Positions 1-64,000 of a stretch of 64,000 nucleotides of DNA are shown piece after piece. Made by a program: the position numbers and the translations under genes. Under the pieces are notes generated by a model. That model was not told where the DNA came from. It saw only the letters and a program-made list of their open reading frames with translations, and made no database searches. The number at the start of each line of letters is the position of its first letter. The stretch's first letter is position 1. This DNA is from Bilabrum cf. latius. Its lineage: Eukaryota. The DNA is taken from contig OZ237737.1 in NCBI GenBank assembly GCA_965178125.1, forward strand, positions 744,001-808,000. The letters are read 5' to 3'.

Positions 1-1503
1 GCCGGTGGCGCGGGCGGGGAACGGGGCAAGGCAGACGGGGAGGCAGGAGTGCCCAGCATGGGTGACACGGAGAGAATTGCGGGAGCCTTGAGTGCCCTTG
101 CAGTGGCAGCCAGGTCGCTGGAATCTAGTGCAGCAAGTTTTGCAGCTGCCGTGAACCAGTGCGCCTCGGAAGCAGAGATGGACCGGGCCCTGCAGCACCT
201 TCATGCGCAGCTTCTTCGAGGCAACGCGCTTGCACCAGGCGCCGCTCTGCCCCCGCATGACGTGGTCGCACCTGGCCGCAAGCTGGGGTGGTGTATGCCG
301 GATGCAGCCCAGAGTGGCCCAAGCACAGCTGCAACGACCAAAGGCGGCACCATCGGCTGGGTGGTGATGTGGGACAGGCACGATCACCCACTCGCGATTC
401 GGCCGGTCGATAGTGCACCGCCATTGATCCGAGGCGCTGGCGCAGACGAGGCCGGCTCAAGCGCCAGCCCTGGGGACCCAGCAATAGCGACGTTAGTGCT
501 CGCTTGGGCATCGGGTGGTGCAGATGCAGCAGCAGCCCAGTCCAAACAGAGTGGTAGTAGTGTGGGCGATGGTGCTCCACGGAAAGCAAAACCGGCCAGA
601 AGACTCGTCAAACCTGGGGCAACACGTGCTTCCAAGATGCTGAAGCGAAAGCGTGCCATCGAAGCGACCATGATGGTGAAGCCAAAAGTAGAGAAGGGCG
701 AAGGCTAGGGCAAAGCAAGCTTCAGACGAGGCGGCTCCAGTGGCGCTTCATCGGAGGGCACCCCAGCCGGAGGGGGTTGCGCGGCTGGCATGCCAAGGGG
801 TGGCTCGGCTGGCCCGGGGGGAGAGTCCGGAGAGGCTGCTGCCGACTGGGAATGGGACAGCAGCGGGCCAACCCCTGCAATTCTTGCTCTCCATGGGATG
901 CACGTGCTTCTACCGGACCAGCTTTTGCTCTCAACAGGCATTGCGCAGGCTTCCAGTGGCAGTCCCATCATGATCGCTGGGGACGCTGTTGTGCCTGCAG
1001 ACGGTGCTTGCAGTGCGCTCGGGCTCGCCGCGAGGGTGGATCTGGGCCGGTGCCACGCGCCCAGGGAGTTGTACAGGATATCAGATGCGAGCGATGCGTT
1101 TGCGTTCGATTTGTTCCATTCGTGGTCCGCTGTCGGCGGCGCAAGAGGCGATGGATCCACACTTGCGGCAGTGGAACGCATCTCTTTCGTGTTTGCTGGG
1201 AGGGTTGCTGCGATCGAAGCACGGCGAAGGCTGAATGATGTCATTGGTAAGCTCAAGGAGGGGCAAAACGCGTTGTTGCTCCAAAGCTCGGAGCAAGCTG
1301 CCGATGAGGATAGGTGCGCGGAGGGTGTTGGGCAATAGCACATCGACGCTCCAGGTGAGATGCCAGACCTGTCAGCCGCCCCTCGAGAAACTGGCCGGCG
1401 GCTAACTATGACGAGACGATCATCAGCAGCCGTACGCCGGAGATAGGATGCGTTGGCTGCGCTTGTCGGTAAGCTCAAAGCCAGTCGAACAGACCAGGGC
1501 TGA
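1..1503 (+). CDS. Hypothetical protein, 5'-truncated by the window edge; 3 in-frame TAG
   Basis: ORFs 49..708 and 790..1338 share one frame, open from base 1. It is interrupted only by TAG at 706, 1336 and 1444 and ends at TGA 1501-1503. No family recognised. Confidence 0.65.
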
Positions 1504-2101
1504 CGGACGTGGCTGTGTCTCGACCCCAGCTCGCATGGCCTCAACTGTTACAATATACGGTTAAACGATATATTCAAATTCTCAATGGTTTCTATGAATA
1601 TGCAGTCAAAACAATCGTGACGCCGCACACTGGAGCAATTACAACCCTCGATCGGCCAGACTCTGGTGCCCGATGGACCCTGCAGGATCATGTCCCGATT
1701 GTCTTGGGCATCTTCATGTCTCCTTGCAATTTACCATCTATTGTTCGAACAGGCGAGTGCGCGCCGGCCAGTTTCTTGGTCTCTACGAATTCGATCTTGC
1801 CACGTGATGGAGTCCCCTCCGCCGCACTGTGTGTCGACGATTTGGTGCTAGGACTATGAGCCAATCCGCTGCCAAGCGGTCCCAAACACAATGCATCAGT
1901 TTCACAAGCACGTACGGGGGATGCCATGCCGCAACTTATTCGATCAACTACGTTTTTGAGGCCAGAACAATCCGAAACTCGAGAGCGCGCGAAAACAGCT
2001 CGTTACCACTCGCCTGTTTGCGCGGCGGTCGCACTCATCCTAGCGCAAGTCTCTCTTAACCACGAACGCGGAGCACCATCCGCGTACTTTCCAAGCATCA
2101 C

Positions 2102-3928
2102 TCATGCGTAGCGCAGGGGGAATCGCTCCTCGTTCTCGCCCACGCCCACGATCACGCTGCCCATGCCCTCGGGCGCAAAGCGGCGGCCGTCCCGCCCGAA
2201 CAGAGACAGGTCCCTTGCCGTCAGGTCAAACTTAACCGTCTGCGATTCCCCGGGCTGCAGGAACACCTTGGTGAAGTCCACCAGGTACTTGAGCGGGTTG
2301 CCGTCCTCGCCGGCCTTGGGCGGGGTCACGAAGAAGAGCACAGAGTCCGCAGCTGCCACGCTACCCGTGTTGGTCACCGTCACGCTGGCAGACGCGAGCG
2401 CGGGCAGGTCCTTGCGCAGGGGTGCGGCTTCAGCCCAGGTGGGATACGCCGCGGCGAAGCTCCTCAGGGAGTCCCTGCTGGCGCGCATCTCTCCCTCGCG
2501 GATCGCGTCCTGGGACCAAGTGTACTTGAAGGTGGTGTACGAGAGGCCGGTCCCGAACTCGTACACGGGCTGTCCCGTGTAGAAGCGGTAGGAGCGGCCG
2601 GGGTATCCCTTGGAGGGATCGGGGCGCACGTCCTGGTTGAACATGGACACGTTGTTCACGTAGCTGCCGGGGTACATGGTCTGCGCCAGCCTGCCCGAGG
2701 GCACGCTGAGCCCGAACACGGTGCGCGCGATGGCGTCTCCACCGGACTGGCCGGGGTATCCCGCCCACATGATGGCGGTGATCTGGTCGGAGCCCTTGGC
2801 GAAGGTAAGGTCCACCATGCCTCCGCCCAGCACGACGAGGATCACGGGCTTGCCCTGCGCAGCGGCAGCCACCTCCGTGATCAGGTCCTGCTGCACGCCG
2901 GGCAGCACGAGGATGTCACGGTCGTGGCCCTCCCTCTCCTGCGACTGGTCCAGGCCCACCACCAGCACCACTGCGTCCGACACCTTGGCGGCGCCCACGG
3001 CCGCGTTGAAGCCGCTCTTGTCCTGCGAGCTGATGTCGCATCCCTTCTCGTAGTGCACGCTGGCCATCTTGGCGAAGCCCTCTCAAGCACGGCGTACGTC
3101 TCTGCTTCAGACAGGCTCGACAACAGGAGGAGTGCCAAATTTGGTACCATTGGCGAGTATCGCAGCCCGTGCAACTACGCCAGCACGCAGACAACTCGAT
3201 CATGCGCTGCACTTATTTCAACTGATGGCTGAGAGAGCAGTCCGAGCGCCGACTCTGGAAGCACCGTCGGTGCAACGCCTAAAAAAGGTATCTGCGGCGA
3301 GCATCGCGGACTTGACGAGGTGAGTACAGTTGAAGAANNNNNNNNNNNNNNNNNNNNNNNNNNNNNNNNNNNNNNNNNNNNNNNNNNNNNNNNNNNNNNN
3401 NNNNNNNNNNNNNNNNNNNNNNNNNNNNNNNNNNNNNNNNNNNNNNNNNNNNNNNNNNNNNNNNNNNNNNNNNNNNNNNNNNNNNNNNNNNNNNNNNNNN
3501 NNNNNNNNNNNNNNNNNNNNNNNNNNNNNNNNNNNNNAAGGGAGGTCACCTCCGAAATGAACTCCAGGTGAGTGTGCGACTCCATGGAGAGCTTCAGACC
3601 TGCGACAGAATGAGAGCGTAAATCTTCTCCCAATTGAGTTGCAGATGCAGGTACCGTCGAGCCTGGCCATGGCATTTTCAATTCAGACTCACCACCACTG
3701 GTATCCGGGAAAGTTCACGCTCTGTGCCGAATCAGCGCCATTTACGAACAGCCCAGGCAACTCTTCCTACTGCAGACGGCTGACGAGGTCCGTGGCCCGA
3801 TCTTCCGTCGATTTGCTTGGATCGCAAAAAGGCATGCTCTTGTACGGATCTGCGCCGCATGGATTGGTCCATGCATGAACAGCAGAAATTGCTGCGGATG
3901 CAGCGATGATTGCGGCTGTGGTCCTCAT
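2102..3928 (-). CDS. Glycoside hydrolase family 3 beta-D-xylosidase-like protein (signal peptide, C-terminal Fn3-like domain); middle lost in assembly gap
   Basis: ATG 3928 gives signal peptide MRTTAAIIAASAAISAVHA, then PFCDPSKSTEDRATDLVSRLQ*EE (TAG 3767). Intron 3600..3692 restores YQWW|SEALHGV. The C-terminal exon has GLDQSQEREGHDR, WAGYPGQSGGDAIA, YPGRSYRFY, FGTGLSYTTF and VTVTNTG, ending at TGA 2102. Confidence 0.9.
3338..3537. other. Scaffold gap (200 N)
   Basis: Run of N. The GH3 catalytic core is missing, so the true gap is probably much longer than 200 bp. Confidence 0.99.
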
Positions 3929-4379
3929 GACAAACCGATCTGACATTAGCGTATCGACGCGTCCAAGAAAACTCATTTATCGATGTGTACGCTACAATGA
4001 ACAGCACAACGCGTGCATCTGGGTGCTTGTGGAATCTTTACCCAACGCGTGCTTGACCCGTTGAACTGTTAGCTCATGCCACCAAAGCACAAATGCTGAA
4101 CTGATATAATAGATACATGCATATTGGGCGTCTTGAATGGGCAAAGGAGAGCAGGAACGCACCCGTGGCACTTAAGCAAGGCCTCGCTCCGCCGACACTC
4201 GATTGCAATGCAAGGTGCCAGTTGTTGCAAGGGGGGGTTACTCAGAAGCCAAGAGTGAGCCGACCCGACCGATACCATTGGCCCATACTGCTACTGCCCA
4301 ACGCAATCCAGCGAAATCACAGAGGATTCGGCCATATACCTGGCCATCCAGCCGTGCAGCCGGCCACCCCCTGCCCAGC

Positions 4380-6512
4380 TCAGTTCTTGTAGTAGTTCAC
4401 GATGTTTCGGACCGCGTTGATGGTCCCCGTGATCATGACCACCACTCCCACGAGGATGCAGGTGCAGCAGATGACCCAGTGGTACCAGTCCGCCTTGCCC
4501 GCCCTCCCGAACGTGAACAGGAACAGGAGAGGTGGGATCACGAACCCAACAATCGTCATCATGAAGGACCCGATCAGGTCCGCAAAGAGCTCAAAGTTGG
4601 GCACGGCCCACGCCACCACGCACGTGAGCAGCACCAGGCCGGCCCTCAGGCCCCTGTGTGACCACGCCCGCAAGCTCGTCAGGTCCTCTGCCACAGCCCG
4701 CCAGTCCGCCTGCGTCATCCCCAGCATGTCCCTCTCGGCACCGTCATCTCCTCCCCCTTGCCCCTCCTCTCTACCACCGCTGCCAACGCCCCCCGCCCTG
4801 AGTGGCACCTGCTCATACTCCTGCGCGTGCCGCCCCGCCTGCACCGATGGGCTGTCCTCCCCCTGCCCCTGCCCCTGCCCCTGCCCCTGCCGGTCCCCCT
4901 ACCCCTCGCCCACGCTCCTGCCATGCCTCTCGACCCTTTCCTCCAGCCCACTGCTGCCTGACCTCGACAGCGCCAACCGCACCCGACCCACCCGTCCTTC
5001 CGCCTTGCTCTCGCCATCGCTGACCGCCCCTGCCTCGCCTGGGCCAGTCTCCTCCTGGTCGCTGAGCACGGCGGCAGCGGCGCCGTCGCGCGCAGCCGCC
5101 GCGTCCTCGAGACTGATCCCGCTGGACTTCCGCAGGGAATCCTCCCACTGGTCCCCCAGCTGCAGCTGCTCCTTGGACCTCTGCTTGCGCTCCGTGGCGG
5201 GCGACCGGAGCGCGAGCTGGAAGCCTTGTTCCGCGGCGCTGGCACCGTCCCCCTCCGACTCGTCGCTGCCCTCTGCGTCTTCCAGGGCTCCCTCGTCCTC
5301 TGCCTTCTCGTCTCCAAAGAGTTTCCTCTCTAGGATCTCGGCGGCAGGGAAGAGAGTCAGCGCGTGCGTGAAGATCAGGCTCGCCACAAGTGCGAGCTGC
5401 ACGGTGATGGTCGCGGTGGCTCCCGGCGCGAAGCAGTCCGTGATGATCGGGCAGCTCCCAAGCCCCGCACCGTACGCAAACGCGCCAAAGGCAGAGCAGC
5501 TGATCGAGTAGAGGGTCATGCCCCATCCCATGACAGGGAATCCACTGTTGGGGTGCTTCAGTGACGCCTCCACCGGCAGCACCAGGTTGATCCCCTCTAG
5601 GGAATACACCGATACACCGATAAACCCCACTATGCCCATAATTTTCAACCCTCCATCTGGAAGGTGCACGCCTGGAGGTACGATACCATCCGTTGGGTGC
5701 GTCAAGGTCTCACCCCCATCGTAGTAGGAGATTCCCATGACACCCCCAACGTACACAATAAGGCCAACGAAACTAAGCACCCACAAATCCTTGAGCTTAC
5801 GTATCCAAGCAAATAAAATGAGGACTGGAAGCGCAGAGAAGATCAACCCAGCACGCGTTGCACCGACCCCGAACGACTCGAAGGCGTCGAGAGCGTTCTG
5901 CGCGCCCACGATGATGAATCCGCTGCAAAACGCAAGCTCCAGGAAGACCACCTAGAAATCTACGATAAATTCCCCCCATGGCCCAAACACGGCTTTACCA
6001 ACCTCAGGGTACGTGACAATATGCTGCCCCCCCGGCTTTGCATTCAGCATGTGCTTCACTCGAATCAGAAGAAGCATTCCGTACGTCACCATGGCACCAA
6101 TACAGAGGTAAATTACAATGCCTAACCATACCCCTGTTTTGGCGAATGCGTTGGGGATTGAGAGAATGCCTGCGGGACGTTGCGAAGAGAGAATTACGCA
6201 TTTAGATTCATTTCGCTACTTTCTGCCATATATCCAAGGCCAATGGACACACGGCTCACCTGCTCCGAAGAGACCTTTCACAAAGTTGAAGAATCCGGCG
6301 AACGCGCCGCCACCGTGCGGCCTATCAGGGAGCTTGTCACCACTGTTCGTGATCACCGCTGGGTTCACCTTCGGTGCGTCTGTGCTGGCCTACGGAAGCA
6401 AAGATTTGGTTTCGTGCACACTAGGCTCCAGCATTGTCTGCCTTTGTTGCAATGTATTCTGTTGGTCTCGTTCAATAGTTGATCCAGCGGTGTCAGAGTC
6501 GCTAGGTTGCAT
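4380..6512 (-). CDS. Amino acid/auxin permease (AAAP / SLC36-like) amino acid transporter
   Basis: ATG 6512. Intron 6170..6259 restores FFNFVKGLFGA|GILSIPNAF. Motifs TYPEVGKAVFG, YSLEGINLVLPVEASLKHP, VPNFELFADLIGS and GFVIPP, with many hydrophobic helices. TAG at 6390, 5952 and 4899; TGA at 4380. Confidence 0.9.
4860..4904 (-). repeat. Coding hexamer microsatellite (GGGCAG)n encoding Gly-Gln repeats
   Basis: The minus strand reads G E G * G D R Q G Q G Q G Q G Q G, with one GGG-TAG-GGG unit next to GGG-CAG-GGG units. Confidence 0.8.
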
Positions 6513-6638
6513 GAATATGGTTTGGCTGGGTCCGGTCCACGAATATCCGCGACGGTGTGACGAACGCCTTCGCGGGATTGGAGCGCTGCGCTCCAATGAC
6601 ACACAAGAAGGTATGCATTCGCGTGAAGGATACATTTA

Positions 6639-7400
6639 TCACCCAAATCCCCCCTTGCCCGTCCCAGACGTGCTCGCGAGACCTCCGAACCCGGCTTTGG
6701 AGGTCGGCGCCCTGCCAGCCGGTGCCTTCATCCCCTAGCCACGGGACCCAACTGGCCCAGCACTCCTCCCAAGGGTGGCCTACCCCTTTGCCTTCATAGA
6801 TCGCTGGAAAGCAGTCCCTTTGGGCACCTGCAAGTGGGGCTTGCTACCCGCCGTCATGTCGTAGCCCCTGCTCGCCTTGAGATCTCGGCCAGTGATTGCT
6901 TTCCTGTGCGTTGCCTCAGCCTTCTTTGTTTTAATTGTACGATCTTTGCTATCCCCGACGAACGTTGCAACCCCGCCGCTGGCAAGACCCAGCCTGTGCC
7001 TGAGATCCGCAGCAATCGCCTCCCTCTCCTTTAAAGAGGCTTCGATTGGCGCAATTCTAGCGAGAGTCTCACGCTCTTGGCGCTCTAGATCAGCTAATTT
7101 AGCAGTGTCACTCGCAACCTATGCGAGCACTTGCCTTTGCGCCTTTCGTATTCCCTTGATCAACTCGTCCAGCCGCTTCACACGTCGCACCGCATGGTCT
7201 GGAACCTTAGATGCCTCTTTTAACTTCCGGAGAAGCTCCTTCATTTCTTTCTGCGTACGCGAGGCGTGCATAGGCTCGATAACACGGTGTATCATGCTCC
7301 ATACAATATGTTGCAAAGGAGTATGCGGAGCCGAACCTACCTCTTTCTGGGATTCATCCTTTCTAGATGCTGTTCTCCTGGCCCCAGATGGCGCAGACAT
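6639..7400 (-). CDS. Hypothetical basic, probably coiled-coil protein (about 253 aa)
   Basis: ATG 7400; frame interrupted only by TAG at 7119, 6780 and 6735; ends TGA (6639) followed immediately by TAA (6636). K/R/E/L-rich helical central part. Confidence 0.65.
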
Positions 7401-7552
7401 GTCTAATGATTCAGATATGATGCTGGATGTGTGGAGTACTTGGTTGTGGCTAGCTTGCAGTAGGAAGGAAGGAAAGGCAACGGAAACTACATTGGTGCAC
7501 TGCACTGCCTTCAGTGCAAGCCCAAGACCGCTGGCATCCGTATGGCGCCGAA

Positions 7553-10500
7553 TCAAGCCCTCCCATAGTACACGGGAAGCTCAAAGACTGCAGTGGTCAC
7601 ATTCGTCCCACCGCGACCGCCGTCGAAGACAGCAGCATCACCTTGGTCCGCCGCGCACCGGTAGATCTGGTCCATCGCGTTGGCCAGCACGAATCCCGTC
7701 GAGTTCGTGAAGCGATACACGGCGTTGGGTCCCATCGAGGGGTACGAAGGAGGGCCTGCTGCGCTCCCCGTGTTCACCAGTCCCCCGTGCCCGATGGAGG
7801 AGAAGCCCGTCGAGTCCCTCACCCACATGACAGTGTCGAGACTCTCGCTCTTGACACCGTACACCTCCACGTGGCCCACGTCCCTGAACTCGCTCTGCGC
7901 CTCGCAGGTGCAGTGCTCCGAGTTGAGCTGGTAGAAAGCCACACGGTGCTGCCCCGTGCCCGACACGAGCATCTTGCGGTACAGGGGGTGCTGGTGCTGG
8001 GGGGCGCTGTTCCTGTGCCCGTCTTCCTGGTACCACGTGTGCCACCGGAGCTCGTCGAGCCCACCCGCGTCGTCACTCGAGTCCGCTGAAGTCGCAGTAC
8101 CCTCCGCCGTGACGGTCGCCAGAGCATGCGCGTACCCTGGCGCCTGCCAGAAAATGTCAGAGCACCTCGCGTTGAAGAACCACGAGCCGCACACTGGCAC
8201 ATTTGTGGCCCACACCTGCCTGGCATTGCCGTAGGCAGGCATAAATGCCCCCGCGCGGGCGTCAGCCGCGCTTGCGTTCTTCTGACTTCCCAGCGTCCAC
8301 TGGACGGCTGACACGTTCACGGTCGACAGCGGGATGGTGATCTGCAGCCCGAACAGCGCCGTGGTAGGGCTGCTGCCAGGGCCTGCTGCAGGCTCGGGAG
8401 GTGTTTGCTGCACTATGCTGCCGTCATACTCGGCAGCTTCACCCCCGAGCAGCAGCACTGGGGGTGCACCGGGGTCCACAGCAGCCGGTGCACCGGGTCG
8501 TGGCCCCTCGAACATCGTGTTGTTTGGGACCAGCGTGACGTACTGCCTTGCGATCCCGCCGATGCTGACGCCTGCAGGCACGTGGATCGTCCTGCTCACG
8601 CGGTAGGTCCCGCGCGGAAGAAACACAACCCCGCTCACCTAGCCCGCGCTGCGACGCGGACTGCCACTGTTTAGCTACGCGTACGCAAGCTTGACTGCGC
8701 GCTCGAGGGCGTCCGTGTCATCGGTAACCCCGTCACCCAGAGCGCCTGCGTCTGCTTTCGCGTTCACCGCCCCCTGCGTCCAGGGCCCAGGGAAATTGGC
8801 GTTCGAGCCCCATGAATGCCTTGCCAGCAGCTCCTCCACGCCAGCAGCAGCGGGAACTCCCACGGTCACGTTGTACACGGACGGAATCGCCTCCCTTGGC
8901 TGCTTCCTGCCGTCCTTGTACGTTGGCATGGTCAGGTGTTGCTGCGGGCAGGGAGATTCGTCCCCGAAGAAGTCTACCCCAACTGCCAGCTCTGCCACGT
9001 GCGTCCACTGGCCAGACTGCCTGCTGGACCCGGCAGCCAGCTTAAAAGAGTCCGATCCAGGTCCGGTGGCGTTGGTCACCTCGACTGCAACGTAGCTACC
9101 AGTCCATTCGCTCCAGCTGTGAGCGCCGCGGACAGCCCCGCGCGAGCCGTCACCTTGCCCCTCCACGAATACGTTTCTCAGGTACAGCGATCGCTGGGAC
9201 TGCAGCACGCCCGCCCTCTTCCATGGCCCCTCTATCCGCCCCTCTGACAGGCCCAGGGTGCCTGACTGCCAAGCCTCTGCCTGCTGATGATTCACAGAAG
9301 GAGGCAGCTTGTTGGGGCACGCACCGCCGCTTTCAGCCTCCGAGGGGAGCACGCCACCCGCCCCTGTAAATCCACCGGTTTGCGCGCCAATGACGGCTGG
9401 TCCCTGAGTCATTGGCCCCGCCTGTGCGTGCAGACCTGCCATGGACAGCGTCTCTAGCCCGGCGTGCAGCAGCCCGGCACAGCTGCTGTTGAAGATCCTT
9501 ACGTTGGAAGCAGTGGGCGCAGGCTGGGACTCCCTCGCGTCGAAACCGATGCGAAACCCCGATACGGTCAGGTTAGAGTGCGCGCCCCCGCTCCCCGAGC
9601 AGCCCTGAATGCCCGCAAAGGCGTCCCCCGCGGGGTTGAATGCGGCCACGTCCTCCAGAGACGACCCCTGGGCGCCACGCATCCGAAACCCAACAGCCCC
9701 GGGATTGTCCTCGCCGATCAGCACGTCGATGGACTAAACCACTGAGCTCATAAGAATGCTTGACTGCAGGCTGTTCAGGTGGTTTATCATCGAGGCGTTC
9801 AACACAGCAAGGGGGTATGCAGGGGGTCCGGAAGCGAATGCCGGCGTGCTTGCCGGCACCCAGATGGTTGCCCTGCCTTTCCGTGGCAACGCATCGTGAG
9901 GCCCGGCATCTCTGAGCACCTGCCCTCGGATGTTTGGCGTGCGGAACCGGTTGTTGTAGTTCGATGTTGCTGCGAGGACGAGCGTGGAGGCATGCACCAT
10001 GACCAGACATTACATGATGCACGCTTCAAGTAGGCCGGGGAGCACGGGAATTGCACACAAAGGCTTCTTACTGTTGTGCGCTGCAAAACCATTAACTTCC
10101 ATCCTCTGGCGCTGGATGGCCCTCAGTCCATCGGTCACCTTGTACACGCCGGCTGGCAGCCAGACAGACATGTAGTTGTCCATCGCAAAATCGATCGCAG
10201 CCTGCAGCGCCAGCGTGGAGTCCTGCGTCCCAGCCGGGTCGGCAGCGAACGGAAGCTTCGTCACGTCCAGTACTCCGTCCGCGGTCCCGGCATCCCAGCC
10301 AGTCGCAGCCCCTGGCTGGCCTCGCTAGTGCCACGTGCCCATCTGTCCGATGTCCCACGAGATGGTGCCGCTCTGGTCCGAGATGGGAGCCGCGACACCT
10401 GCCGCAGCACCGGGTCGGAGCGTGTTCGCGACAGACACAGCGCCTATCGACACGTTTCCTGCGCCCATGGCTTGCGCCCGCAACACTGCCTCTCCAGTGG

Positions 10501-11491: not shown

Positions 11492-11643
11492 TGTAGATGG
11501 CTGGCTGTATTTGAGCGTCACTCTTGGTGATCCTTTGCCCTGTGCAGAGATCCGAATCGGATCCGCTTCACTTTTCAAGTTCAACAAGTTGTGGGACAGT
11601 ACCCACGGGAGGGCGGACCTGCTGCTGCCCCGCGGTGTGGCCC

Positions 11644-52800: not shown

Positions 52801-55800
52801 CTCGCCCTCGATGACCACCTGCTGCCCGCCCTTGGTGTCAGCCATGTCGGAGCCCTGGCCGCTGATGCTGGTGATGATGGGCAGGGCATAAGCAGAGACA
52901 CCGACATCGGCCGGGGAAGGTTTGGAAGTCTGGCCTCCAAGGGTCACCTGCCAGCGGTGGTTCTTGCCGATGCCAGGGGCAGTGCGGCACACGATCTGCT
53001 TGTGCGGATAGGAGCGTGAGACCCTGCACCCGACCGCCACGTACGGCGAAATCTCCTCATCAATCATGATGCTGACGTTGGCAATCAGGGTGTGGTACTC
53101 GGCGTTGATGGGTGCGGTATCCACGGGGCCGAAGTTGTCGCCGTAAATCGTGACCTCGTCCCCGCCTTCGGTGGCCAGCCGGTTGGCACTCACCGAGAAG
53201 ATGACTGGCGGCTCGTACGAGATGCTCGACTGGAAAAACTCCGATACCTACCCGCCGATCGTAACCGTGAACTGAAGGTTGGCACCGATGCCCTAGGAGG
53301 ACAGGCACCGCACGATCGTGTGGGAAGTAGCAATTCTGCAGCCCGATGCGGTGTACTCAGTACCGGTGGGGCCGTAGCGTACGGTGGCCGAGGTGGGGAT
53401 GCCGTTGTGGGTCGCAGGCCCGAAGTTGATACCGTCAATGATGATTGCCTCACCGCCGGACGTCTTGAGGGTAAAGTCGCCTGCCTGCTCTAGGCGGACC
53501 CCCTGGACGCGGGGTGGCGCGTACCCGGTCTTCTTCGTTGAAGTGTCTTGGTGTGGTACCCCAGAGTCTGGGTTTGTGGAACTGACGATCCAGATGTGGT
53601 CCAGACCCACGCCGGCGGGGATCGTGCACGTGATGGCAGACCCCGGCACCTTGCTGACGCACCCAGTGGCCGCGTACTTGGTGCCCTGCAGGGGGCCAAA
53701 TGTCACTGTGTATCGAGTGCGGTCCTGGATGCTGTCGCGCTGCATGCGCTCCGCGGTCAGACCCATGTTGCGCCCGGTGATGACCACCTGCACACCACCA
53801 GGCGTGGAGGATAGTACCTCCATGCTGCCATGCGTGACCTGCCAGTCAACCTGCTGCCCGTCAAAGAGGTTGGTCCAGTTGGCGCCATGATGCCTCTCGG
53901 GGTAGACATTCCATGCGAGCTACGCCTGCGCGGCTGCCTCCTCCACGTAGAACCCAGACACCTCCAGGTCGTTCACGTCAAGCACACGCACCACCACTGT
54001 GGTGGTGGCCTCGAGTGGGGCCTGGGCATCGCCATCCGTTGCGGTCAGTGTGAACGTGTACTGCTCCTGGTTCTCCCAGTCAAGCCCATCGTCGAAGACG
54101 GTAAGCTCGCCCTGGTTCGAGACCAGGAAGCGCTGGTCGTCCCCAGACGCGCTGCTCAGTGTGTAGCGCAGAGTGCCGCGGGCAGTGGTGGGGCTATCTC
54201 CATCGGTGGCGGTAGCCGTCCCGAGCACGGTCTCCCGCACTGCGTCCTCGCGAACGAGGAACACGTATGCGGTCTGGCGGAACTTTGGGGCCTCGTTGAT
54301 GTCAGTCACAGTGACGTTGATCGTGACCTCATCGCTGAGCCCGCGGCTGTCAGTGACGATTGCCACGTACGCGAAGCTGCTCTTTACGTCGTCTTCGAAA
54401 TCGAGTTCTTCTGGGTCGGAGCGGAAAGTGACGGCTCCAGTGGTGACATCGATGCGGAAGAGCGGGTTGGGGTTGACCTTCCAGCGGTAAGACAGCTCCC
54501 CCAGCGCAGCATCCCAGGAATCCTGGTCCACTGCCTGCACTGCGTCGCCTCCAAGCGGCGTGGTAGGCGAGGACAGCTCAGGAATGGTGAGCATGAGCCA
54601 CCGCTCTGCGCCAGTCTTGCCTGCCTGATCCACGCTGTCAACGACAAACATAGGCTTCTCGTTGACGTTCTCCACCACGATTCGCGCCTCAATCGAGGTT
54701 TCCATGGGAAGTGTCACGTGCGAGTCAGTCGCCGTGATGAGGACCTCGTACTCAGAGAACATGCCCTCAAAGTCGATGTTTCCCCCAGTAGCCGTTACAT
54801 AGATCTTGCCCTTGTTGACCGCGTTGTTCTCAGCTTCGGTGGAAGGTACCGTTCGGATCTCGAAGGGGAAAGGACGGTTGACGTTCTGCCCACGTGGGAA
54901 GATACGGTACGACAGAGTCTGCCCTGCCACGTGGTTCACATCGGTCGCAACAATCTCACCAACCAGCGTGTTAGGCGCGGAGTTCTCAGTGACGCGGAAC
55001 GGACCCGAGGGAGCCACAAACACAGGGTAGTCGTTGGCATCGGTCAGTTTGATGGTTACGATGTTGTCAGTTGACGCAAGGCCGGCCCTATCGGTCACAC
55101 TGACGTTAAGAGAAAACAAGTTCGACACGCCAGCCACATACCGCGAGTCAGACGGGCTGATATACTGGAACGCTGCAGCCTGGTGGTCATTCGTCGAGAT
55201 CATTCCGGAGTCTGAGTCGATCTTAAGCGAATCCTGGGTGTTGCCGGCCACTATACCAAAGGTGAAGGAATCACCGTCATCTTCGTCTTGCACGAACTGA
55301 GCCACTGAGCCGATGTCGGCCTCACGACCCGAAGCGGCGGTGAACACGATGCCAGACCGAAGGCTCGGGCCCTCGTTCACGTTAGTCAGGCGAACTTCGA
55401 CGGACGCGAGGTCAGACTGTCCGACCGTGTCGGTGACCTTCACCTAGACGGCGTACGACTTCTTGGACTCGAAATCTAGGTACGGCGCCCCAGGTTGGAG
55501 GTCTCGAACGTGCATGCGACCCGTGCGCTCCTCGATCGCGAAGGGCAGCTCGTTCTTGGTTGTGTTGTCCATTGAGATGATTTCGTACCTGAGCATGCTG
55601 AGGTCGGCCTCGTCTTGATCCGTAGCCACCACAATTCCCACCGTGGTGTCCGCACGGGAGTTCTCAGGAATGTTATCGAAGACAGCATCGTTAGCAACGG
55701 GCGGCTCCTGCACGTCGTTGATGTCAATGAGCCACTGAGCCTCGTCGGAGAATCCACCGGCATCAGTGACTTTTACCTTGAGGACGTGCTGGCTGGTCTT

Positions 55801-58800
55801 CTCGTGGTTGAGCGCGGCGCGAAGCACCTCGACCTCACCTGTGCTGCGCAGCACGCGGAACACCCCAGCGGGAGTCTGCTGAACGATGGAGTATGAGTGC
55901 GCATCTCCATCATCAGGATCCACCACCAGGTCTGAAGTGTTTGCCACCAGCGACGCAAAAGCAGAGTTCTCAGCGATGTTGAAGACGCGGTTGTCGATCC
56001 TCGGGTACTCGTTCATGTCAGTCACTGTCACTGTGACGGTTGCATTGTCCCACAATCCGCCTTCGTCCGTCACCTTGATCACAAGCTCGTAAATTTCGAC
56101 GCTCTCGTGGTCAAGAGCCAGCGCACCGGCAGCACTCACCTCTACCTGTGCCGCGCGGCCATCGCCGGCCACCTAGAAGTACCCATTGCCATTGCCGCCA
56201 ACAATACTCCATTCCAGATTCTCCTCTGCGAGTGGTCCATCAGGATCCGATCCGATGATTCGGACGCCGACATCGTCGCCCTCGGAGAGTTTGACCGAAC
56301 GGAGCGTAGTCTCCGGGATAGACCTTGCGGCGTCATCCACAACAGGAGCTTCATTCCGGTTGGTTACCTTAATGTCGGCGTCCACCGTGTCGCACAAAGC
56401 AGGGGACCCAGCGTCGCACACCTTGACGGTGAGAGTAAACTTGTTGACGTCTGCATCCTCATGGTCAATTCGGTCGGCCATTGCAAGGCTGAGGTCACCG
56501 GTGCTTCCGTCGATTGCGAAGAAACCGAGGTTGTTGCCTCCCTAAATGGACCAAGACAGCTGGCTCCAAGCTGCGGTAGTGGAGTTGACGTCCTCGTCCG
56601 TCGCAAGTAGTCCATGCGTGTGCGTGGACTCAACAGGAGTGTCCACTGGAGATCCTTCCATCACTTCGAACGAGTACTTGGTCTCGCCAGTAGGTAGGGT
56701 AATGACAGGCGCATCGTTGGCGTCGATGATGCGCACCGTGACGGTGGATTCATCGCTCAGCTGCGGCTTGCCGTCATCTCGGACCAGGATGCCCACAGTG
56801 TACTCGTTCTTCACCTCGTAGTTGAGCTTGGCCTTCTCGCGCACTTCGAGCTGTCCAGAGCAGGCATCAATCTTGAACAGAGAGGCTCCGTCTCCCGGTG
56901 ACGTGTCGCTGATGCTGAAGATGAGCTGCTGCCTCTCACCAAGGATGGGGTGTGCGTTGTCGGGGTCGCTGGCATTCAGCGGCTTGCCGGCCTTGGCAGG
57001 GCTGAGCGAGTTCTCGAGAATGGATCGCACTGCGTCCATCACAACGGGGGGCTCGTTTACGTCAGTGACTGCCACAGAGAACGTAGCCCTCGCGGATAGA
57101 CCGCCACCGTCCGTCGCCTTGACCTCCAGGTCGTAACCATCCGCGGCAAGGTCTTCAAAGTTCAGCACTCCATCTACAGCACCATCGGAAGTGACGGAGA
57201 CCACGCCAGTCCTAGAATCAACTGCGAAATAGTCCTTGCCGGTACCTCCAACGATTGTGTAGGTGAGTGTGCCGTTGCTGCCTGCATCCACGTCGGTGCC
57301 CTAAATAGTGCCGTCAATGAGGGAGGCACCAACCACTGGGTTCTCAGGAATTGTCATGCGACCAGAGGCCAACGTAGGTGCTTCATTGATGTCCACCACC
57401 TCAATGAAGACGTCGGCGTCTGCGTCCAGAGAGGGCACACCGTTGTCAGCTGCGGTAACCACGACGGTCCATGAGCTTGTCGTCTCGAAATCAAGGATGT
57501 CCTACGCCACCTTGATGAGGCCGCTTCCAGAGTCAATCGTGAAGACTCGCTGCAGACCGTTGGCGTTTCCGTCCAAAGCAATCGTGTACGTGATGGTCTG
57601 GTCGTCCAGGATGTCCGGGTCGACAGCCTTGCCGGCGAGAGAGCCAATCTTGGCAGCAAGCTCGCTGGGCTTGGTGTTCTCGTCCACCTTATAGCATGCT
57701 GCATATTCTCGGTTGTCTCCGTCGGGAGCCAGCCGGCATGTGGAAGTGGTCCACTCGAGCTTCTCATTGACGTCCTGCACGTTGATCTGCACCACGGCCC
57801 GGTCCTCGCGCTCGGGCTCGCCAGAGTCGGTGACCACCACCTCGAAGCCATACCAGCGCTGCGCCTCGTAGTTGGGAGACGAAGACGTGCCGATCTCAAC
57901 ATCACCGATCGAAGACACCGCAAACGTACCAGTGGCAGAGAATGCAGTGTTCTCGAAGCACACAGCAGTCGCGTGCACAGTCGAGACGCCGGCGCCAATT
58001 CCAATTCTCGTCGGTGAGAAAGCGTTGGAGTCCGTGTAGGTGAGGATAGTCGTAGCACCATCCGCATCGCGAGAGCGGCCGGTGCCCACCAGAATATCTC
58101 CATCATCCACAGCAACCCACAGCTCTACGTCCTACCTGCTGTCCAGCACACCAGCCACATTCTCCTCTGCCACCCTGTGCAGGGCCTGGCATGACGTGAG
58201 GAACTTTGGGCACTTGCGCAGCTGCACCTTGGTGTTGGAAGCGCTGCCAATACGCAATTCATAGTAGTTGCCCGTGGGGTCCGAGTAGTCCTCGTCGCCC
58301 TCGGAGGCATCCTGCTCCCGCAGGTGCACGATGAGGTCCTGCTTGGCACGCACCCGGAGGCTTGCCTCGATTGAAACGTCGGTGTCTCCAGTGTTGGCGG
58401 GCACGGGCGCATACTCGATGTAGTCGGCGCCAGCCTTGCTTACAGTGGCCGACCAGCACAGGTCCCTGCCCAGATCGTAGGAGAGAAGGTCTGCCGAGTC
58501 CTGATCAGTCGCCCTGAGCTTTGAGGAGACTGTGCTGCCCGCAGCCAAGTTCTCATCCGATTTTACGGACAGGTCAGCCAGCACAGGGGCGTCGTTAACG
58601 TCGTTGATGGTGATCGTGATGGTAGCCGTGTCAGTAAGATCGTAGGTGTCAGTAACTTTCACGCCAATGCTGTAAGAGGAGGTTGTCTCGCGATCCACGT
58701 CCAGGCTCGCGATGGTTACGACACCGGTGGACTCGTCGATTGCGAAGTGTCCATCGCTATTGCCATTACCAAAGAAGGAGAACTTGAGTTCACCATCATC

Positions 58801-61800
58801 GTCTGCGTCGACATCGGACGCTCGTACCGTCCCCACAGTGATGCCAGTCCTTGCTGGGTTCTCGTCCGTTGACATGGTGAGCGTGGAATCGTCGATCACG
58901 GGATTCTCACCGACGTCGGTGACGTTTACAGTAACCTGCGTGGTCACTGAAAGCTCTCCATCCGATACTTGCACGGTTAGATCGTAGTAGCTCCGAGTCT
59001 CGAAGTCCAGGATGTCGTCATTCACGCGGATCTCGCCGCGGCGGCGGCTCCCACTCGTGGCACCGGGCACTGTGTTGATTCGGAATGCGTCGGCGAAGTT
59101 GCCCTGTGTGATCGAGTACGACAGGGTATCATCTGTGTCCGCGTCCGCGCCTTGCACATACCCAATGAGCGTGCCCTCCCTGGAGTTCTCCTCGAGGGAG
59201 AAGGCCGCACCTGTGATGGTGGGCGGATCGTTGTACGGAATGATGTTGACCTGGATAGGTACTGAGGCAGCGAGGAACCCTGCGCCATCATCGGTCACGG
59301 TGACTGTCCCCTTGTAGGCCTAAAGCTGCGGCATGTACTCTGTGGGTCCCGATGGCGTGTCCTTGGCAACGTATACACGGCCTGTGGTCGGGTGGATGGC
59401 CAAGTCGTCGGCGTCTCCTCCGGTCGGGATGGTTGTCCAAGATACAGAGTACGTTAGGGAATCGCCATCATCTTCGTCCTCAGCAGTGACGCGACCCACC
59501 TCCTGGCCGTTGATTGCATTCTCGGCCGCCGAGAAGGTGAAAGAGGACTTGCTGATGACGGGGTTCTCGTTCACGTCGTTCACTGTGATAGTCACGGTTG
59601 CGGTATCGCTGAGGCCGCCGGCGTCCGTTACCTTGATAGTGAGCACGTAGGTTCCCTTGGTCTCGTGGTCCAAGTCTGCGTCAGATGCTGTAGTAATCTG
59701 GCCGGTAGTCTCGCCGATGGCGAACTTTGGGGAGTCGCTAGAAGTCACAAGAGAAAACTTGAGGTTGGTGTAGGGAACATCGGAGGCATCCACGTCAGTT
59801 GCCACCATGCGAGGACCGACGTTGGCGCTGTTGAGGTTTTCATCAACCGTGCGTGCCTGGTTGCCGATCACCGGAGCCTCGTTGACATCTACAATGTTGA
59901 TCTTCAAATCGGCCTCGGCATATAGACCCCCAATATCAGTTGCCCTGACACGAACCGTATGCGACGTCTCGGACTCAAAGTTGAGGCCCTGCTTGACTTC
60001 GAGGGTTCCGTCGGCCGTCAAGATCCGGAAGAAGCCTGCAGGGGTCTAAGACACAATGCTGTACGTATGCCTATCGTTAGCATCCACGTCAGTAGCCAGG
60101 TCCTTGGTTCCGGTCACGGCCGTTGCCACGGCAGCGCTCTCCTTGATACTGAATGTGCCATCCGAAAGCGCGGGGTTCTCGTTCACGTTGGTCAGCTTCA
60201 CGGTGATGGTGGCCGTGTCAGTCAGAGCCGGAGTGGCGCTGTCGGTGGCAGTCACGACAAGCTCGAGCTCATTGTTGTCGGCCTCAAAATCCAGTATGGG
60301 GTTGGTGCCCACCTTGATCTAGCCATCTGCAGAAACGGTGAAGTTTGCCCTGTCCGCGCCTCCAGTCAGCGTGTATGAAACAGTCTGCCCGTCATCAGGG
60401 TCCTTGGCGGCCAGTTTGGAACCCACCATTGCACCCTCAGCCGAGTTTTCTGCAAGTTCGATAGTCTTTTCGTCAAGGACGGGGGGCTCGTTGGCATCCA
60501 GAACAGTGACGGTGATGATGCCCCAGCCGCTAAGCTCGGGCTCGCCGTCATCAGTTGCCGAGATGTTGAGCTTGCGCACCTCCTCAGTCTCATGGTCGAG
60601 CTGGTCACCGTCCTTAATGGAGATCTGGCCCGTGCTGGAGTCGATCTTGAAGGCCCCGTCGGTGTTGCCCCCCTCGATTGAAAACGTGTGGTCCTGGTCG
60701 AAGTCCTCGTCCTGCACGAAGACCTTGTCACCAACGTTAGTGTCCTCATCGCTCAGTTCTGCCACGGACGCAGAGGCGGCGCGGACGGTGGGCGGCTCGT
60801 TCACGTCGTTGATCTGCACCGTGATCATGGCCGTGTCACTTAGACGAGCAGGTCCAGGCACAGGCCCAGCATCATCGGTCACTGAAACTGTGAGCGTGTA
60901 CTTAAAGCCCTGCGTCTGAAGCGTCTCATAATCGAGGCCCTCTTTCCGCACCTTGAGCTGACCAGAGCAAGCGTCAATCTTGAAAAAGCCGGCATCATTG
61001 CCCGACTCGATCTTGTACGAAAGCGACTGGCCCTTGTCAGGATCCGAGGCAACAAGTGCGTCGCCCACCACGGCATTGACCAGCGAGTTCTCGTCCACGT
61101 CTCTGGTCTAGTCCTAAATGGTGGGACGCTCGTTCCTGTCGACCACGTTTATGACCACCGATTTAGTGACAGACTGGGTAGGCGAGCCTGTGTCTGTTAC
61201 CTTGATCGTCAGAGTGAACTTGTTGCGGAAGCCAGTGGCGGCCTCAAAGTCGATCTTGGCTTTATCTAGAGACAGAGTCAGCCCATCAACTGAGAAGTAG
61301 TCATCGTCGTCCCCATTGCCGCCCAGGATGGCCATCGTGTGGTTGTCCAGCTTGTCCTCGTCCGTGACGACGATACTGCCGACAACGTCTCCCTAGAGAG
61401 CTGTTTCGGGCAGCTCGAGCGCCTTGGTGACGATTGTAGGCGCCTCGTTGACGTTGGTCACGGTCACTTTTACTGGCGTTGTTACTGAGAGACCAGATGA
61501 ATCGGTCACCACTACGTCCAGCTGGTGCTGAGCCGCGCTCTCGAAGTTGATCGAGGTGCTGCTGAGGGCCTTGACTGCTCCAGTGGTCTTGTCGATGTAG
61601 AAGGCAGTGGAACCACCGGCCAGGGAGAACGAGAGCTTGTCGTTGTTGTCCGGGTCAGTGGCCTTGGCGGTGAAGATGACCGTGTCTTTGGGGCGATTTT
61701 CAGCCGTCGTGGCCGACGTGACACCGGTGTATTTAGGCTTTTCATTGACATTGGTGATAAAAATCGTCCATGTCTTGGTGCTGGTCAGGCCTGCCTCGTC

Positions 61801-64000
61801 CATGGCTCGTACCGTCAGCGTATACTTGTTCTTGGTCTCGTAGTCCACCTCCTTGGCGAGGGACAGCACGCCAGCGGGAGTCAGCTGAAACACGTTGTTC
61901 GTATTGCCACTCACGAGCGCGTACCGGATCTGGTCCCTGTCCTCATCCGTGGCAGAAAGCCCACCGCCCACTGTAGTGCCGCGGGCAGATGACTCGGGCA
62001 CTTGTGCCGCAGTGGGCGCGTTGAGCTGGGGCGCGTCATTGACGTCGTTGAGATCAACACGCACGATTGCGGTGTCTGTCTTGCCCTTCTTGTCGGTGAC
62101 AGTGACAGTCAGTGAGTAGGTGGGGTTGGTCTCGTAGTTGAGCGAGGCCTTGTTCACCTTGAGGAGACCCTGGTTGCCCACGGAGGAGATCTTGAATGAG
62201 CTGCCCGTATTGCCCGCCGTGATTGAGTACGTGAGAGTTTCGCTGCTGTCGGGGTCCGTGCCCTTCAGAGCCGTGCCCACGTCAGTGTTAACGGCAGAGT
62301 TCTCGTCAACCTTGAAGCTGGCGTCGTCCAAGCTGGGCGCTTCGTTCACGTTCTTGACGTGAACGGTCCACGTGGAGGCCACAGACATGGGAACCAGGGC
62401 GTTTCCCTGCGCGTCTGATCCGGGTACATCCGTGCACCGGATACCCAGCGTGTACTTGCTCTTTGTCTCGTAATCCAGCGTGCCAGACAGCTCAATCTTG
62501 CCCGTGTTGGCGTTAATGATGAACATCTCCCCCGTGTTGCCAGAATCGATGAAGTACTGAACCGTGTGGTCGTCTGGGTCTGAACAGCTGGGGTTCTTGG
62601 GCAGCTCCGTCTTGGAGTCCTCGTCTTCGTCCAGCTGGGTAGATCCCGAGCTCATCGTGGGAGGCTTGTTGCCTGCCGTGATCTCCACCGTAATTGTTTG
62701 GGTAAACGACTTGCTCGGGCTGCCGTTGTCCGTGGCGACGATGTTGAATTCAACTTCGGCGGAGTTCTGACCATCAGGAAGCGGCTTGAGGTTGTCAAGC
62801 ACGGTGAGCTGGCCAGTGGTCGAACCAATCGTGATGGGAAGGCGCGTGTAGTCACTCGAGGGCTTGATGCTCTAGTCAGCGGCCTTGATCGCCCACGTTA
62901 CCTTCTACCCAGCGTCCGGGTCTGAGGCCACGAATGGCACGCCAATCTTGGTGCCGCTCTTGGCACTGTCGCCAACAGCCCTCTGGTTTGTCGAATCCGA
63001 GATCTCCGGCTCTTCGTTCACATCAGTGATGCGCACAGTGATGATGCCGGTGTCAGATTTCGTATTGGCGCCTCCCTCCACACCGTCCATGACGGTGACA
63101 GTGAGAGTGTACTCGCTCGTCACCTCGTAGTTGGGTGATGCGGCAACTTGCATCTGGCAGGTGCCAGCCTTGAAGGTGAAGGTGCCTCCCGTGTTGCCCC
63201 TCGACACGGCACACCGCACGCTGTCACCCTCCGGGTCAGTGGCCGGTAGCGCAGATCCCACGTTTGATCCAGCCGCAGAGTTCTCGGCGACAGTCAACGT
63301 GCGAGCAGCCAGCGAAGGCGCCTCGTCTGCGTCCGAAACAGTAATGGATACAGTTCCGGTATGGCTCAGTGCAGGGGACCCGGAATCCTGTACCTTGATG
63401 CCAAGGGTGTACCTGCTCTTGGTCTCGTGATCGAGGGCCTGCGCCACGCGGAGCTGGCCTGACAGCGAATCGATCGAGAAGCGGTTGTCCGAACCGGAGG
63501 TGATGCTGTAGAAGAGTGTCTGACCTTGATCGGGATCCGAAGCAGCAACCTTCGTGGTGCTGATCACGGCACCAATTGCCGTGTCCTCCTTGACCGTGAA
63601 CGACTGTCCCGACGTGAGAGTGGGCCTCTCATTCACGTTGTTGATGGCAATGCTCACAGCTCGCTGTCCTACCATACCCTTGCGGTCTTTTGCGATGACA
63701 GTCACGGACGCTGACTTGAGGGACTCGTAGTTCGGCGGCGCCTTTACCAGGATTTGCCCATCCGTACCCATCTTGAAGTAGCTGTTCGTTGTCATGGACC
63801 ACGTGAGTGAGGCCACATCCCCGGCATCCTCGTCCGTGGCCGTGAGCTTGTCCCCTACCTTGGTGTTCACAGCCGAGTTCTCGTTAATGCTGAGCACCTT
63901 TGATGGAGCAGCCACGACGGGAGGATCGGGCTGGTCGGTGACCTTGATGGTGAGCGTGGCCTTCTCGGTGTTCTTGCCGTCAGAGACGGTGACTCCGTAC
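46861..64000 (-). CDS. Giant nonagonal-type cadherin B (5'-truncated): cadherin repeats, FAMeT-like insert, IPT/TIG repeats, Cys-rich region, 9 TM, coiled coil, C-terminal WW domain (>5700 aa)
   Basis: A single intron-free frame from the window end to TGA 46861, interrupted only by 21 TAG. Canonical cadherin repeats 54000-64000 (LDYETK, DVNEAP, ATDxD), IPT repeats 49500-53850, nine TM segments 47730-49110, and WW domain LPDGWEARKDKKSGRVFYRNKETGKKQWKRP. Confidence 0.92.

Follow-up and report, generated by a model that had tools for sequence, protein, structure and literature searches.

Whether TAG is a stop or a sense codon in the genes of this locus, and what organism would read it so, is the question raised by the 64-kb window analysed here, a stretch of 64,000 nucleotides. 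The initial annotation had reported about 120 in-frame TAG codons spread over all of some 14 genes and had read UAG as Gln, UAA and UGA remaining stops. Fourteen gene models were drawn, amounting to 19,447 codons, in which TAG was counted 121 times in frame, next to 508 CAG and 151 CAA codons (15.5% of the Gln codons, 121/780), and every one of the 14 genes carries at least one. Neither TAA nor TGA occurs inside these models. Thirteen genes end at TGA, one at TAA and none at TAG, the last in line with the initial annotation; with 14 ends this is a small sample, the absence of TAG having a chance of 1.8% if a quarter of the genes ended in TAG and of 23% if one in ten did. We consider it very likely that the window comes from the nuclear genome of a stramenopile, probably a flagellate of bicosoecid grade but outside Cafeteria, in which UAG encodes Gln and UGA (mostly) and UAA serve as stops.

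The GC-rich composition and introns of about 100 nt described earlier were also found, with 59% GC and 14 modelled introns, all GT-AG, of 99.5 nt in the median; at least four of them are confirmed by intron-skipping contigs and the other 10 are predicted. The first gene, G1 (1..1503, forward strand), is an ORF open at its 5' end with 3 TAGs and a TGA stop, and is the least certain model. On the reverse strand follow a GH3 beta-xylosidase-like gene (G2, 2102..3928; PF01915, PF14310), which ends at TGA, is interrupted by an N gap (3338-3537) and has its sole TAG in exon 1, the 5' piece, with none in the 326-codon last exon; an amino-acid transporter (G3, 4380..6512; PF01490) with 3 TAGs and a TGA stop; G4 (6639..7400), with 3 TAGs and a TGA followed by TAA; a protein with pectate-lyase-like domains (PF12708) and an N-terminal hydrophobic leader (G5, 7553..11491), with 6 TAGs and a TGA stop; and a Nit-type carbon-nitrogen hydrolase (G6, 11644..13008; PF00795), with 2 TAGs and a TGA stop. 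Three forward genes come next, all ending at TGA: G7 (13210..18184), a Ser/Thr/Pro-rich, probable membrane protein with 3 predicted introns and 7 TAGs; the NO66/RIOX1 JmjC oxygenase (G8, 18484..20907), with TAG at 18916, 18961, 19057 and 19705; and glucose-6-phosphate isomerase, GPI (G9, 21032..22955; PF00342), with TAG at 21297, 22197 and 22395. The Ser-rich G10 (23080..24292, reverse; 1 predicted intron, 3 TAGs) and G11 (24669..26147, reverse; 2 TAGs) also stop at TGA. UAA as a stop is known here from a single gene, G12 (26405..27577, forward; 4 TAGs), which has no homologues and whose tail directly before the TAA we take to be CaaX-like. No Pfam match was obtained for G1, G4, G7, G10, G11 and G12.

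The two remaining genes encode large proteins that combine cadherin, IPT/TIG and multi-TM parts; the label of nonagonal cadherins given in the initial annotation (Fletcher 2016, cited in PMC11603286) would call for nine TM helices behind the cadherin repeats. The first, cad1 (G13, 27935..46568, forward; 5,994 aa), has 5 predicted introns, 59 TAGs and a TGA stop, and one stretch of it (28064-39961, forward) runs for 3,965 codons with 36 TAGs and no TAA. Its acceptor at 40117 was picked from several in-frame options, the TAG count being the same for each; an alternative model with a different acceptor was ruled out by its 37 internal stops. The second, cad2 (G14, 46861..63999, reverse), also carries a WW domain and is open at its 5' end. 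It is the 17-kb single frame pointed out in the initial annotation, now measured at 5,712 codons (46861-63999) with 21 TAGs, no TAA and one terminal TGA, and the other five frames of this stretch hold 27-273 TGA each.

Could these TAGs be something that is never translated as such, namely sequencing or assembly errors, the marks of pseudogenes, the ends of micro-introns, or sites of RNA editing (U-to-C yielding CAG, A-to-I yielding UGG)? If C>T damage or nonsense mutation had made 121 TAGs from CAG, about 36 TAA and 38 TGA would be expected alongside; because both counts are 0, the 121 TAGs cannot be put down to chance. TAG does match the YAG acceptor consensus, but the NO66 and GPI TAG sites show no insertion relative to homologues. 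Contigs from four of 19 listed runs (X1, X5, X6 and X8) were compared over the span 4300-24200 only, and those of all four studies are identical to the window at every TAG covered: for the 31 TAGs of G3-G10 no other letter was found, with 30 covered in X1, 20 in X8, 17 in X5 and 9 in X6 among the pieces listed, and there was no difference or joint at any TAG among the contig matches listed. The introns at 6170-6259 (G3) and 9970-10071 (G5) are skipped in X5, and those at 7251-7340 (G4) and 21167-21278 (GPI) in both X5 and X6. Fifteen of the 31 TAGs lie inside such intron-skipping contigs of X5 and one in those of X6; TAG is thus kept in spliced sequence, at contig level, with no CAG in its place, as the Gln reading had proposed. 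These contigs conceal minority variants, and X1 may be the source sample; none of the listed runs, X5 and X6 included, is recorded as RNA, a fact that carries no weight in either direction. The same bases in four studies and the TAGs retained in spliced contigs argue against artefact, splicing and wholesale editing, and editing to UGG is disfavoured by the alignment columns, which do not favour Trp. An untranslated TAG is therefore a very remote explanation.

To identify the residue, 51 TAG columns from GPI, NO66, cad1 and cad2 were scored against homologues in a likelihood test from which P0205 and P0206 were excluded. Gln reached +22.8 bits, 28 bits ahead of the next residue, Ala (-5.6), with Ser at -8.7 and Leu outside the top five. 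None of 5,000 random sets of non-Gln columns matched the Gln score, and the column sets of 11 other residues, Leu, Ser, Glu, Tyr and Trp included, did so in at most 1 of 1,000 draws each. A stricter context filter left 25 columns, with Gln at +10.6 and Ala at -2.1. The most telling sites are near-invariant: two NO66 columns are Gln in 145/149 and 149/149 homologues, the GPI column at 22395 is Gln in 117/117, and human NO66 carries Gln at each of the three TAG sites in the domain (18916, 18961 and 19057). In the cad2 orthologues, Gln stands in 3/3 rows at site 1227, 4/4 at 1318, 8/8 at 3584 and 3/5 at 2166. Counting against Gln, no more than 4/10 of the conserved TAG columns have this residue, next to 3/9 for CAA and 41/79 for CAG. 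Over all 51 columns, the enrichment of TAG columns in Gln bears out the earlier reading.

Another residue has precedents, Leu (rhizarian exLh, TARA phyllopharyngeans) or Ser (Scotinosphaera), with Glu, Tyr and Trp as further candidates, and some sites point away from Gln: at GPI site 352, 106/117 homologues have Leu (two have Gln there, in the same local context), GPI site 52 is Ala in 64/102, the TAG of the GH3 gene lies opposite Phe or Leu in homologues from the PDB, and the cadherin TAG columns are mostly variable. An earlier scoring of the 51 sites by mean frequency gave Gln and Ala 0.11 each, and the result became clear only with likelihoods and with NO66 added; a test on the window's own repeats (14 sites; Ala +3.0, Gln -2.2) was weak, its CAG control also giving Gln -3.0. 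No TAG/CAG swap was found between near-identical cad1 repeats. Against these stand the lead of Gln, its three invariant columns and the close NO66 homologue P0205 (70% identical), which has Gln at 3/3 domain TAG sites, and we regard any residue other than Gln as highly improbable.

P0205 itself stops just ahead of a position where 128/143 homologues have Gln. Its organism may share the UAG=Gln code, judging from this end and from the Gln at the three domain sites; alternatively, the protein may break off at a contig edge or at a different stop. When shorter cadherin fragments of relatives that share the code were sought, 8 proteins were returned, 4 of them named Cafeteria and none above 54%, and none of the alignable fragment ends (P0376, P0377, P0382 and P0385) falls directly before a Gln. 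A metagenome scan with GPI gave 80 loci of 48-60% identity, none of this lineage, and two viral-contig scans gave no match; a GTDB scan with P0205 returned one contig, intron-rich and of 40% GC, which was set aside as unrelated.

Within the genes, TAG is used as a minor synonym among the Gln codons and, like CAA, sits in lower-GC3 contexts: local GC3 is 0.64 around TAG, 0.63 around CAA and 0.71 around CAG, and the per-gene TAG share drops as GC3 rises (rho -0.75, p 0.002, n=14), as does that of CAA. A further possibility is that UAG is ambiguous, being Gln internally but terminating close to the 3' end of some mRNAs, as in Condylostoma and Blastocrithidia, or read by a suppressor tRNA in competition with a largely intact eRF1. 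The last 150 codons do hold 6 TAGs where 11.6 are expected (p 0.02, one of four distances tried) with CAA undiminished, and the gene ends seen are only 14. However, no depletion appears nearer to the ends (1 vs 2.4 in the last 30 codons, 5 vs 4.9 in 60, 6 vs 8.9 in 100), GC3 is higher at the 3' ends of most genes, which itself lowers TAG, and none of the 14 ends is TAG. Moreover, the gene with 59 TAGs demands near-complete readthrough, since 95% per site would leave 5% full-length product. Ambiguity is therefore unlikely.

As to the organism, the initial annotation had favoured a stramenopile over a ciliate. This is supported, mainly by one gene: the cad2 C-terminus is 59% identical to Cafeteria, its closest named relative, over about 700 aa and falls in a 9-row clade with SH-aLRT 99, in a tree whose named orthologues included none from oomycetes, labyrinthulids or outside the stramenopiles. 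The top-scoring named single-domain GPI matches are stramenopiles (64-66%), but neither the GPI tree nor a quick NO66 tree gave a resolved placement; a grouping of GPI with Blastocystis (99/86) was lost once Blastocystis was removed. No tRNA (ARAGORN), no rRNA including 18S (Rfam) and no eRF1 gene was found within the window. Ciliate introns are of a size unlike the roughly 100 nt seen here, and 59% GC likewise differs from ciliates (27-54% in Phyllopharyngea). The organism and the marine flagellate Cafeteria are probably distant relatives, and from the identities between them (44-59% in cad2, 49% in NO66) we infer a different genus or family. Cafeteria roenbergensis/burkhardae, the closest named genome, has an orthologous cadherin-IPT-TM protein and, as in the window, intron-poor, GC-rich genes; it differs in its genome of about 70% GC, and a non-standard code has been described for its mitochondrion only. 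Since the cadherin ORFs of Cafeteria and three further relatives run for 3,400-7,600 aa without a stop, the change of UAG probably originated inside this clade, separately from ciliates and Iotanema.

The code itself, of the table-15 type, is already known. The precedents named in the initial annotation, Iotanema and phyllopharyngean ciliates, were correct, and Protocruzia tuzeti is to be added; a 2024 overview lists reassignment of UAG alone to Gln in four cases, three of them ciliates. In Iotanema spirale (Fornicata; PMC5304391) UAG is Gln and UAA is not reassigned, as here, but the lineage is unrelated and UAA is its dominant stop, against UGA in 13/14 genes of the window. H. sinica and T. 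petrani, both phyllopharyngean, and P. tuzeti share UAG=Gln with UAA and UGA as stops, with UAG in 78-91% of their genes (14/14 here), and in five UAG-reassigned phyllopharyngeans 86.9-98.3% of genes end at UAA in a class of 27-54% GC, unlike the UGA-dominated window of 59% GC (PMC11687900). Code-15 phages (Lak, crAss-like; PMC9523058) resemble it in that TAG is Gln and genes stop at TAA and TGA. Their termination depends on the bacterial RF1/RF2 system, and the present case is eukaryotic. Reassignments of UAG only to Leu (rhizarian exLh, TARA ciliate MAGs) or Ser (Scotinosphaera) likewise uncouple UAG from UAA; for the window, both residues were rejected on their column scores. The UAR=Gln code (NCBI table 6, used by many ciliates, ulvophytes, hexamitids, Streblomastix and Amoeboaphelidium) also makes UAG Gln but UAA as well; with no internal TAA in 19,447 codons, against 151 CAA and 121 TAG, and one gene ending at TAA, it does not apply here.

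In the literature searched, which excluded subscription journals and supplements, no nuclear stop reassignment in a stramenopile was found. The earlier suggestion that the reassignment is undescribed holds within that literature. We lean towards regarding it as the first nuclear stop-to-sense reassignment in stramenopiles, with UAG=Gln having arisen independently in a bicosoecid-like clade of at least two species, that of the window and that of P0205, present in runs of several studies. There is an appreciable, though smaller, chance that the host is not a stramenopile or that the case is already published; this would touch novelty only, and is compatible with UAG being Gln.

Eukaryotes have a single eRF1 that must discriminate the stops. 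If UAG is indeed Gln, this eRF1 must refuse UAG and accept both UGA and UAA, as both are used as stops, and AT-driven codon capture is no explanation for a GC-rich genome ending mainly at UGA. One route would be a duplicated tRNA-Gln(CUG) gene in which a single anticodon base changed to CUA, so as to pair with UAG and not UAA, the product being charged by GlnRS; eRF1 would have lost most of its recognition of UAG, perhaps by a change at Thr32, which contacts the G in third position, and kept UGA and UAA. TAG could then have spread from CAG by C>T transitions at weakly selected sites. Iotanema offers a precedent, with eRF1 T32G and a predicted tRNA-Gln(CUA) (PMC5304391).

Nuclear codes that split UAG from UAA are very rare, and a stramenopile case would add a major eukaryotic group. 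Its main stop, UGA, and its GC content contrast with the UAA-dominated Iotanema and phyllopharyngeans, and so would test low GC or rare-stop usage as a driver of reassignment; the case also bears on which eRF1 residue discriminates the third-position G. Sequence of this organism is present in at least four studies, two of which have spliced contigs; its tRNA, eRF1 and proteome may accordingly be reachable, and relatives with the standard code, such as Cafeteria, provide a control. Standard gene callers truncate its proteins at each TAG; this keeps the lineage out of sight in protein databases and would corrupt its annotation: P0206, 95% identical to the window's NO66, and P0355 both terminate exactly at the first NO66 TAG.

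Under the standard code, the longest frame anywhere in the window, all frames considered, is at most 607 codons. When TAG is read as sense, frames of 5,712 codons (46861-63999, minus strand), 3,965 codons (28064-39961, plus strand) and 1,523 codons (13613-18184, plus strand) are found. The first, already described in the initial annotation as a 17-kb single frame, contains 21 TAG, no TAA and one terminal TGA, and the other five frames across this stretch carry 27-273 TGA apiece. The 14 gene models, G1 to G14, comprise 19,447 codons with 121 TAG (about 120 had been counted earlier across some 14 genes), 508 CAG and 151 CAA in frame, and no internal TAA or TGA. As previously claimed, none ends in TAG: 13 end in TGA and one in TAA. 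Their 14 introns are all GT-AG, with a median of 99.5 nt; four were confirmed by intron-skipping contigs and ten are predicted. The gene content is ordinary for a eukaryote, with a GH3 glycosidase, an amino-acid transporter, a pectate-lyase-like protein, a nitrilase, NO66 and GPI, and two giant cadherin-IPT-TM proteins, cad1 (27935-46568, plus strand) and cad2 (46861-63999, minus strand), complete the set with assigned domains; the Pfam search returned no match for six of the 14 models. GC3 climbs steeply from 5' to 3' in G3 and G5-G11 (0.41-0.65 in the first 150 codons, 0.73-0.85 in the last 150), a rise that is weak in G12 and absent from cad1.

A UAR=Gln code was rejected because TAA is never found inside a frame. 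The sole TAA-ending gene is G12, whose TAA directly follows what we take to be a CaaX-like tail that has a further Cys upstream (27545-27577), and G4 ends in TGA then TAA. It is unlikely that UAG is also a stop in some genes. TAG is mildly depleted in the last 150 codons (6 versus 11.6 expected, p 0.02, one of four distances tried), but these codons are GC3-richer in most genes, no depletion was detected in the last 30, 60 or 100 codons by within-gene permutation, and TAG ends none of the 14 genes, though this sample is small.

Regarding the residue encoded, all three TAGs of the NO66 JmjC region face Gln in human NO66; in the first of these columns Gln occupies 145 of 149 aligned rows and in the second 149 of 149 (148 of them more distant homologues). 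Likewise, the GPI TAG at 22395 faces Gln in 117 of 117 aligned rows. In a likelihood test on 51 alignable TAG columns (GPI, NO66, cad1 and cad2), from which the close relatives P0205 and P0206 were left out, Gln scored +22.8 bits, Ala -5.6 and Ser -8.7. In 5,000 random draws from the non-Gln columns the Gln score was never reached, and column sets from each of 11 other residues reached it in at most 1 of 1,000 draws. With a stricter filter (25 columns), Gln scored +10.6 versus -2.1 bits for the next residue. An earlier form of the test that did not include NO66 returned the correct residue in 91% of subsamples across 59 codons and failed for CAA. Some sites count against Gln: GPI TAG site 352 is Leu in 106 of 117 homologues (two others carry Gln in the same local context), the GH3 TAG site lies opposite Leu or Phe, and conserved columns are Gln in only 4/10 cases for TAG, compared with 3/9 for CAA and 41/79 for CAG. 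When only the 14 sites in repeats of the window itself were used, Ala was weakly favoured, in a test that scored Gln negative even for CAG. In usage, TAG makes up 15.5% of Gln codons and behaves like a minor synonymous one: its share per gene drops as GC3 rises (rho -0.75, p 0.002), as does that of CAA (rho -0.81), and its local GC3 (0.64) is close to that of CAA (0.63, p 0.24) and below that of CAG (0.71, p 1e-7). We consider it very probable that UAG encodes Gln, with UGA and UAA as stops.

If damage or nonsense mutation had turned CAG into TAG at the observed 19%, about 36 TAA (from CAA) and 38 TGA (from CGA) would be expected, whereas none was observed. Eight of the 19 sequencing runs listed contain half or more of the words of 18400-23000, none of them being recorded as RNA. 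Contigs of four runs from four studies (X1, X5, X6 and X8) were compared with window 4300-24200. X1 contigs are unspliced, and X1 may be the source sample of the window. X5 contigs skip all four confirmed introns and X6 contigs two, so both sets behave as cDNA, the library type being a guess. The 31 TAGs of G3-G10 are covered by zero-mismatch pieces in at least 30 (X1), 20 (X8), 17 (X5) and 9 (X6) cases, and none of the TAG sites coincides with the 14 base differences among the contig differences listed. At least 15 (X5) and at least one (X6) of the 31 lie inside intron-skipping contigs, so that removal by splicing, raised earlier as a possible refutation, is not seen there. Wholesale editing and micro-introns removing TAG are excluded at these sites; partial editing is possible since contigs hide minority variants. 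It should be noted that one X5 contig (18434-23025) runs across both NO66 and spliced GPI, which are only 124 nt apart; the UTRs of the two genes may overlap, transcription may read through, or the contig may be a fusion. In X1 and X5 the 3' part of the pectate-lyase-like gene G5 (7774-7911) is also matched by another contig with 14 differences, which suggests a paralogue elsewhere in the genome.

Codon use, residue and retention in spliced contigs make up the evidence in hand. By extension from available parts of the Iotanema study (PMC5304391), a tRNA with a CUA anticodon, one base from tRNA-Gln(CUG), would be the sole way to read UAG without UAA; GlnRS would have to accept it, and eRF1 to lose contact to the third-position G, as with T32G in Iotanema. 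eRF1 would also have to retain strong UGA recognition, given the 13 genes ending in TGA. New TAGs might arise from CAG by C>T at weakly selected sites, in keeping with the GC3 pattern.

As far as the accessible text of the PMC11687900 survey goes, UAG alone is Gln in Iotanema, H. sinica, T. petrani and Protocruzia tuzeti, which agrees with the precedents first named (Iotanema and phyllopharyngean ciliates), Leu in the rhizarian exLh and TARA ciliates, and Ser in Scotinosphaera; stramenopiles find no mention in that text. The code itself is therefore already known, though very rare; what is unusual here is the high GC and UGA-dominated termination. By contrast with the window, UAA closes 86.9-98.3% of genes in five reassigned phyllopharyngeans (PMC11687900, in part) and is the dominant stop in Iotanema (PMC5304391, in part). 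No stramenopile nuclear UAG reassignment was found by literature searches or in the texts consulted, as far as accessible (PMC12153298, PMC12574857, PMC13768787, PMC11412368, PMC6723347, PMC12614181 and PMC11603286), in which the bicosoecid literature concerns mitochondrial UGA=Trp. A prior report is possible, though less likely than not, because most subscription journals and supplements lie beyond this search.

The organism is very probably a stramenopile and probably of bicosoecid grade, judging from sequence comparison; a scan of the window for rRNA found no 18S. Over its C-terminal 700 aa, cad2 shares 59% identity with orthologues from Cafeteria roenbergensis and forms a clade with them and four other rows (SH-aLRT 99) in a 27-row tree in which Aureococcus is the only other named eukaryote. 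The top named single-domain GPI matches are stramenopiles (64-66% identity); GPI groups with Blastocystis and two other rows (99/86) in a 70-row tree, and is unplaced in a partly different 56-row set without Blastocystis. In the NO66 tree the window is placed firmly only as sister to P0205. The window has 59% GC and introns near 100 nt; by its GC the organism is neither Cafeteria, at about 70% GC in the part of PMC6972860 available, nor Halocafeteria, at 47% in that of bioRxiv 2026.07.28.741278.

P0205, found by a search of cluster representatives, is 70% identical to the window NO66 across 213 residues (sisters, SH-aLRT 100) and carries Gln at all three JmjC-region TAG positions in nearly identical context. 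It stops just short of a position where 128 of 143 homologues have Gln and the window has a CAG codon. The simplest reading would be a TAG after its last residue, which would make its source a second species sharing this code; the end may possibly be a contig edge or another stop codon instead, the source sequence being two contigs, the longest of 10,765 nt. P0206 (95% identical) and its cluster member P0355 both break off precisely where the window has its first NO66 TAG. The stop-free cadherin ORFs (3,400-7,600 aa) of Cafeteria, P0122, P0123 and P0127 suggest the standard code, if gene callers used that code. On balance we lean towards a first stramenopile case of independent origin, common to at least two species. 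Public gene calls for this lineage (P0206, P0355 and probably P0205) stop at TAG, leaving short protein fragments in databases, and P0128, labelled 'archaeon', is a Cafeteria-clade cadherin. The 157-kb contig (40% GC) of a GTDB Ekhidna sp. MAG with an intron-rich eukaryotic NO66 (L081:9600-13300) is eukaryotic contamination.

The window NO66 (808 aa versus about 460 in the solved constructs) carries long acidic, Gly/Ala-rich low-complexity insertions at 19150-20300, absent from human NO66 and covered gap-free by an X5 contig. The GH3 gene is broken by a 200-N gap (3338-3537), and the 255 nt from the gap to its last exon (starting at 3083), non-GH3 in every frame by eye, may be an intron, a mis-join or a frameshift. 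Five tandem 354-nt cadherin repeats in cad1 (28481-30273) are >99% identical with the same TAG in each, and a 757-nt duplication (30596-31352 and 32450-33206) is 97.6% identical, its differences mostly synonymous. cad1 and cad2 lie tail to tail with 292 nt between their ends (46568-46861); they are only distantly related paralogues, with 25% identity across the TM region, and a WW domain ends cad2.
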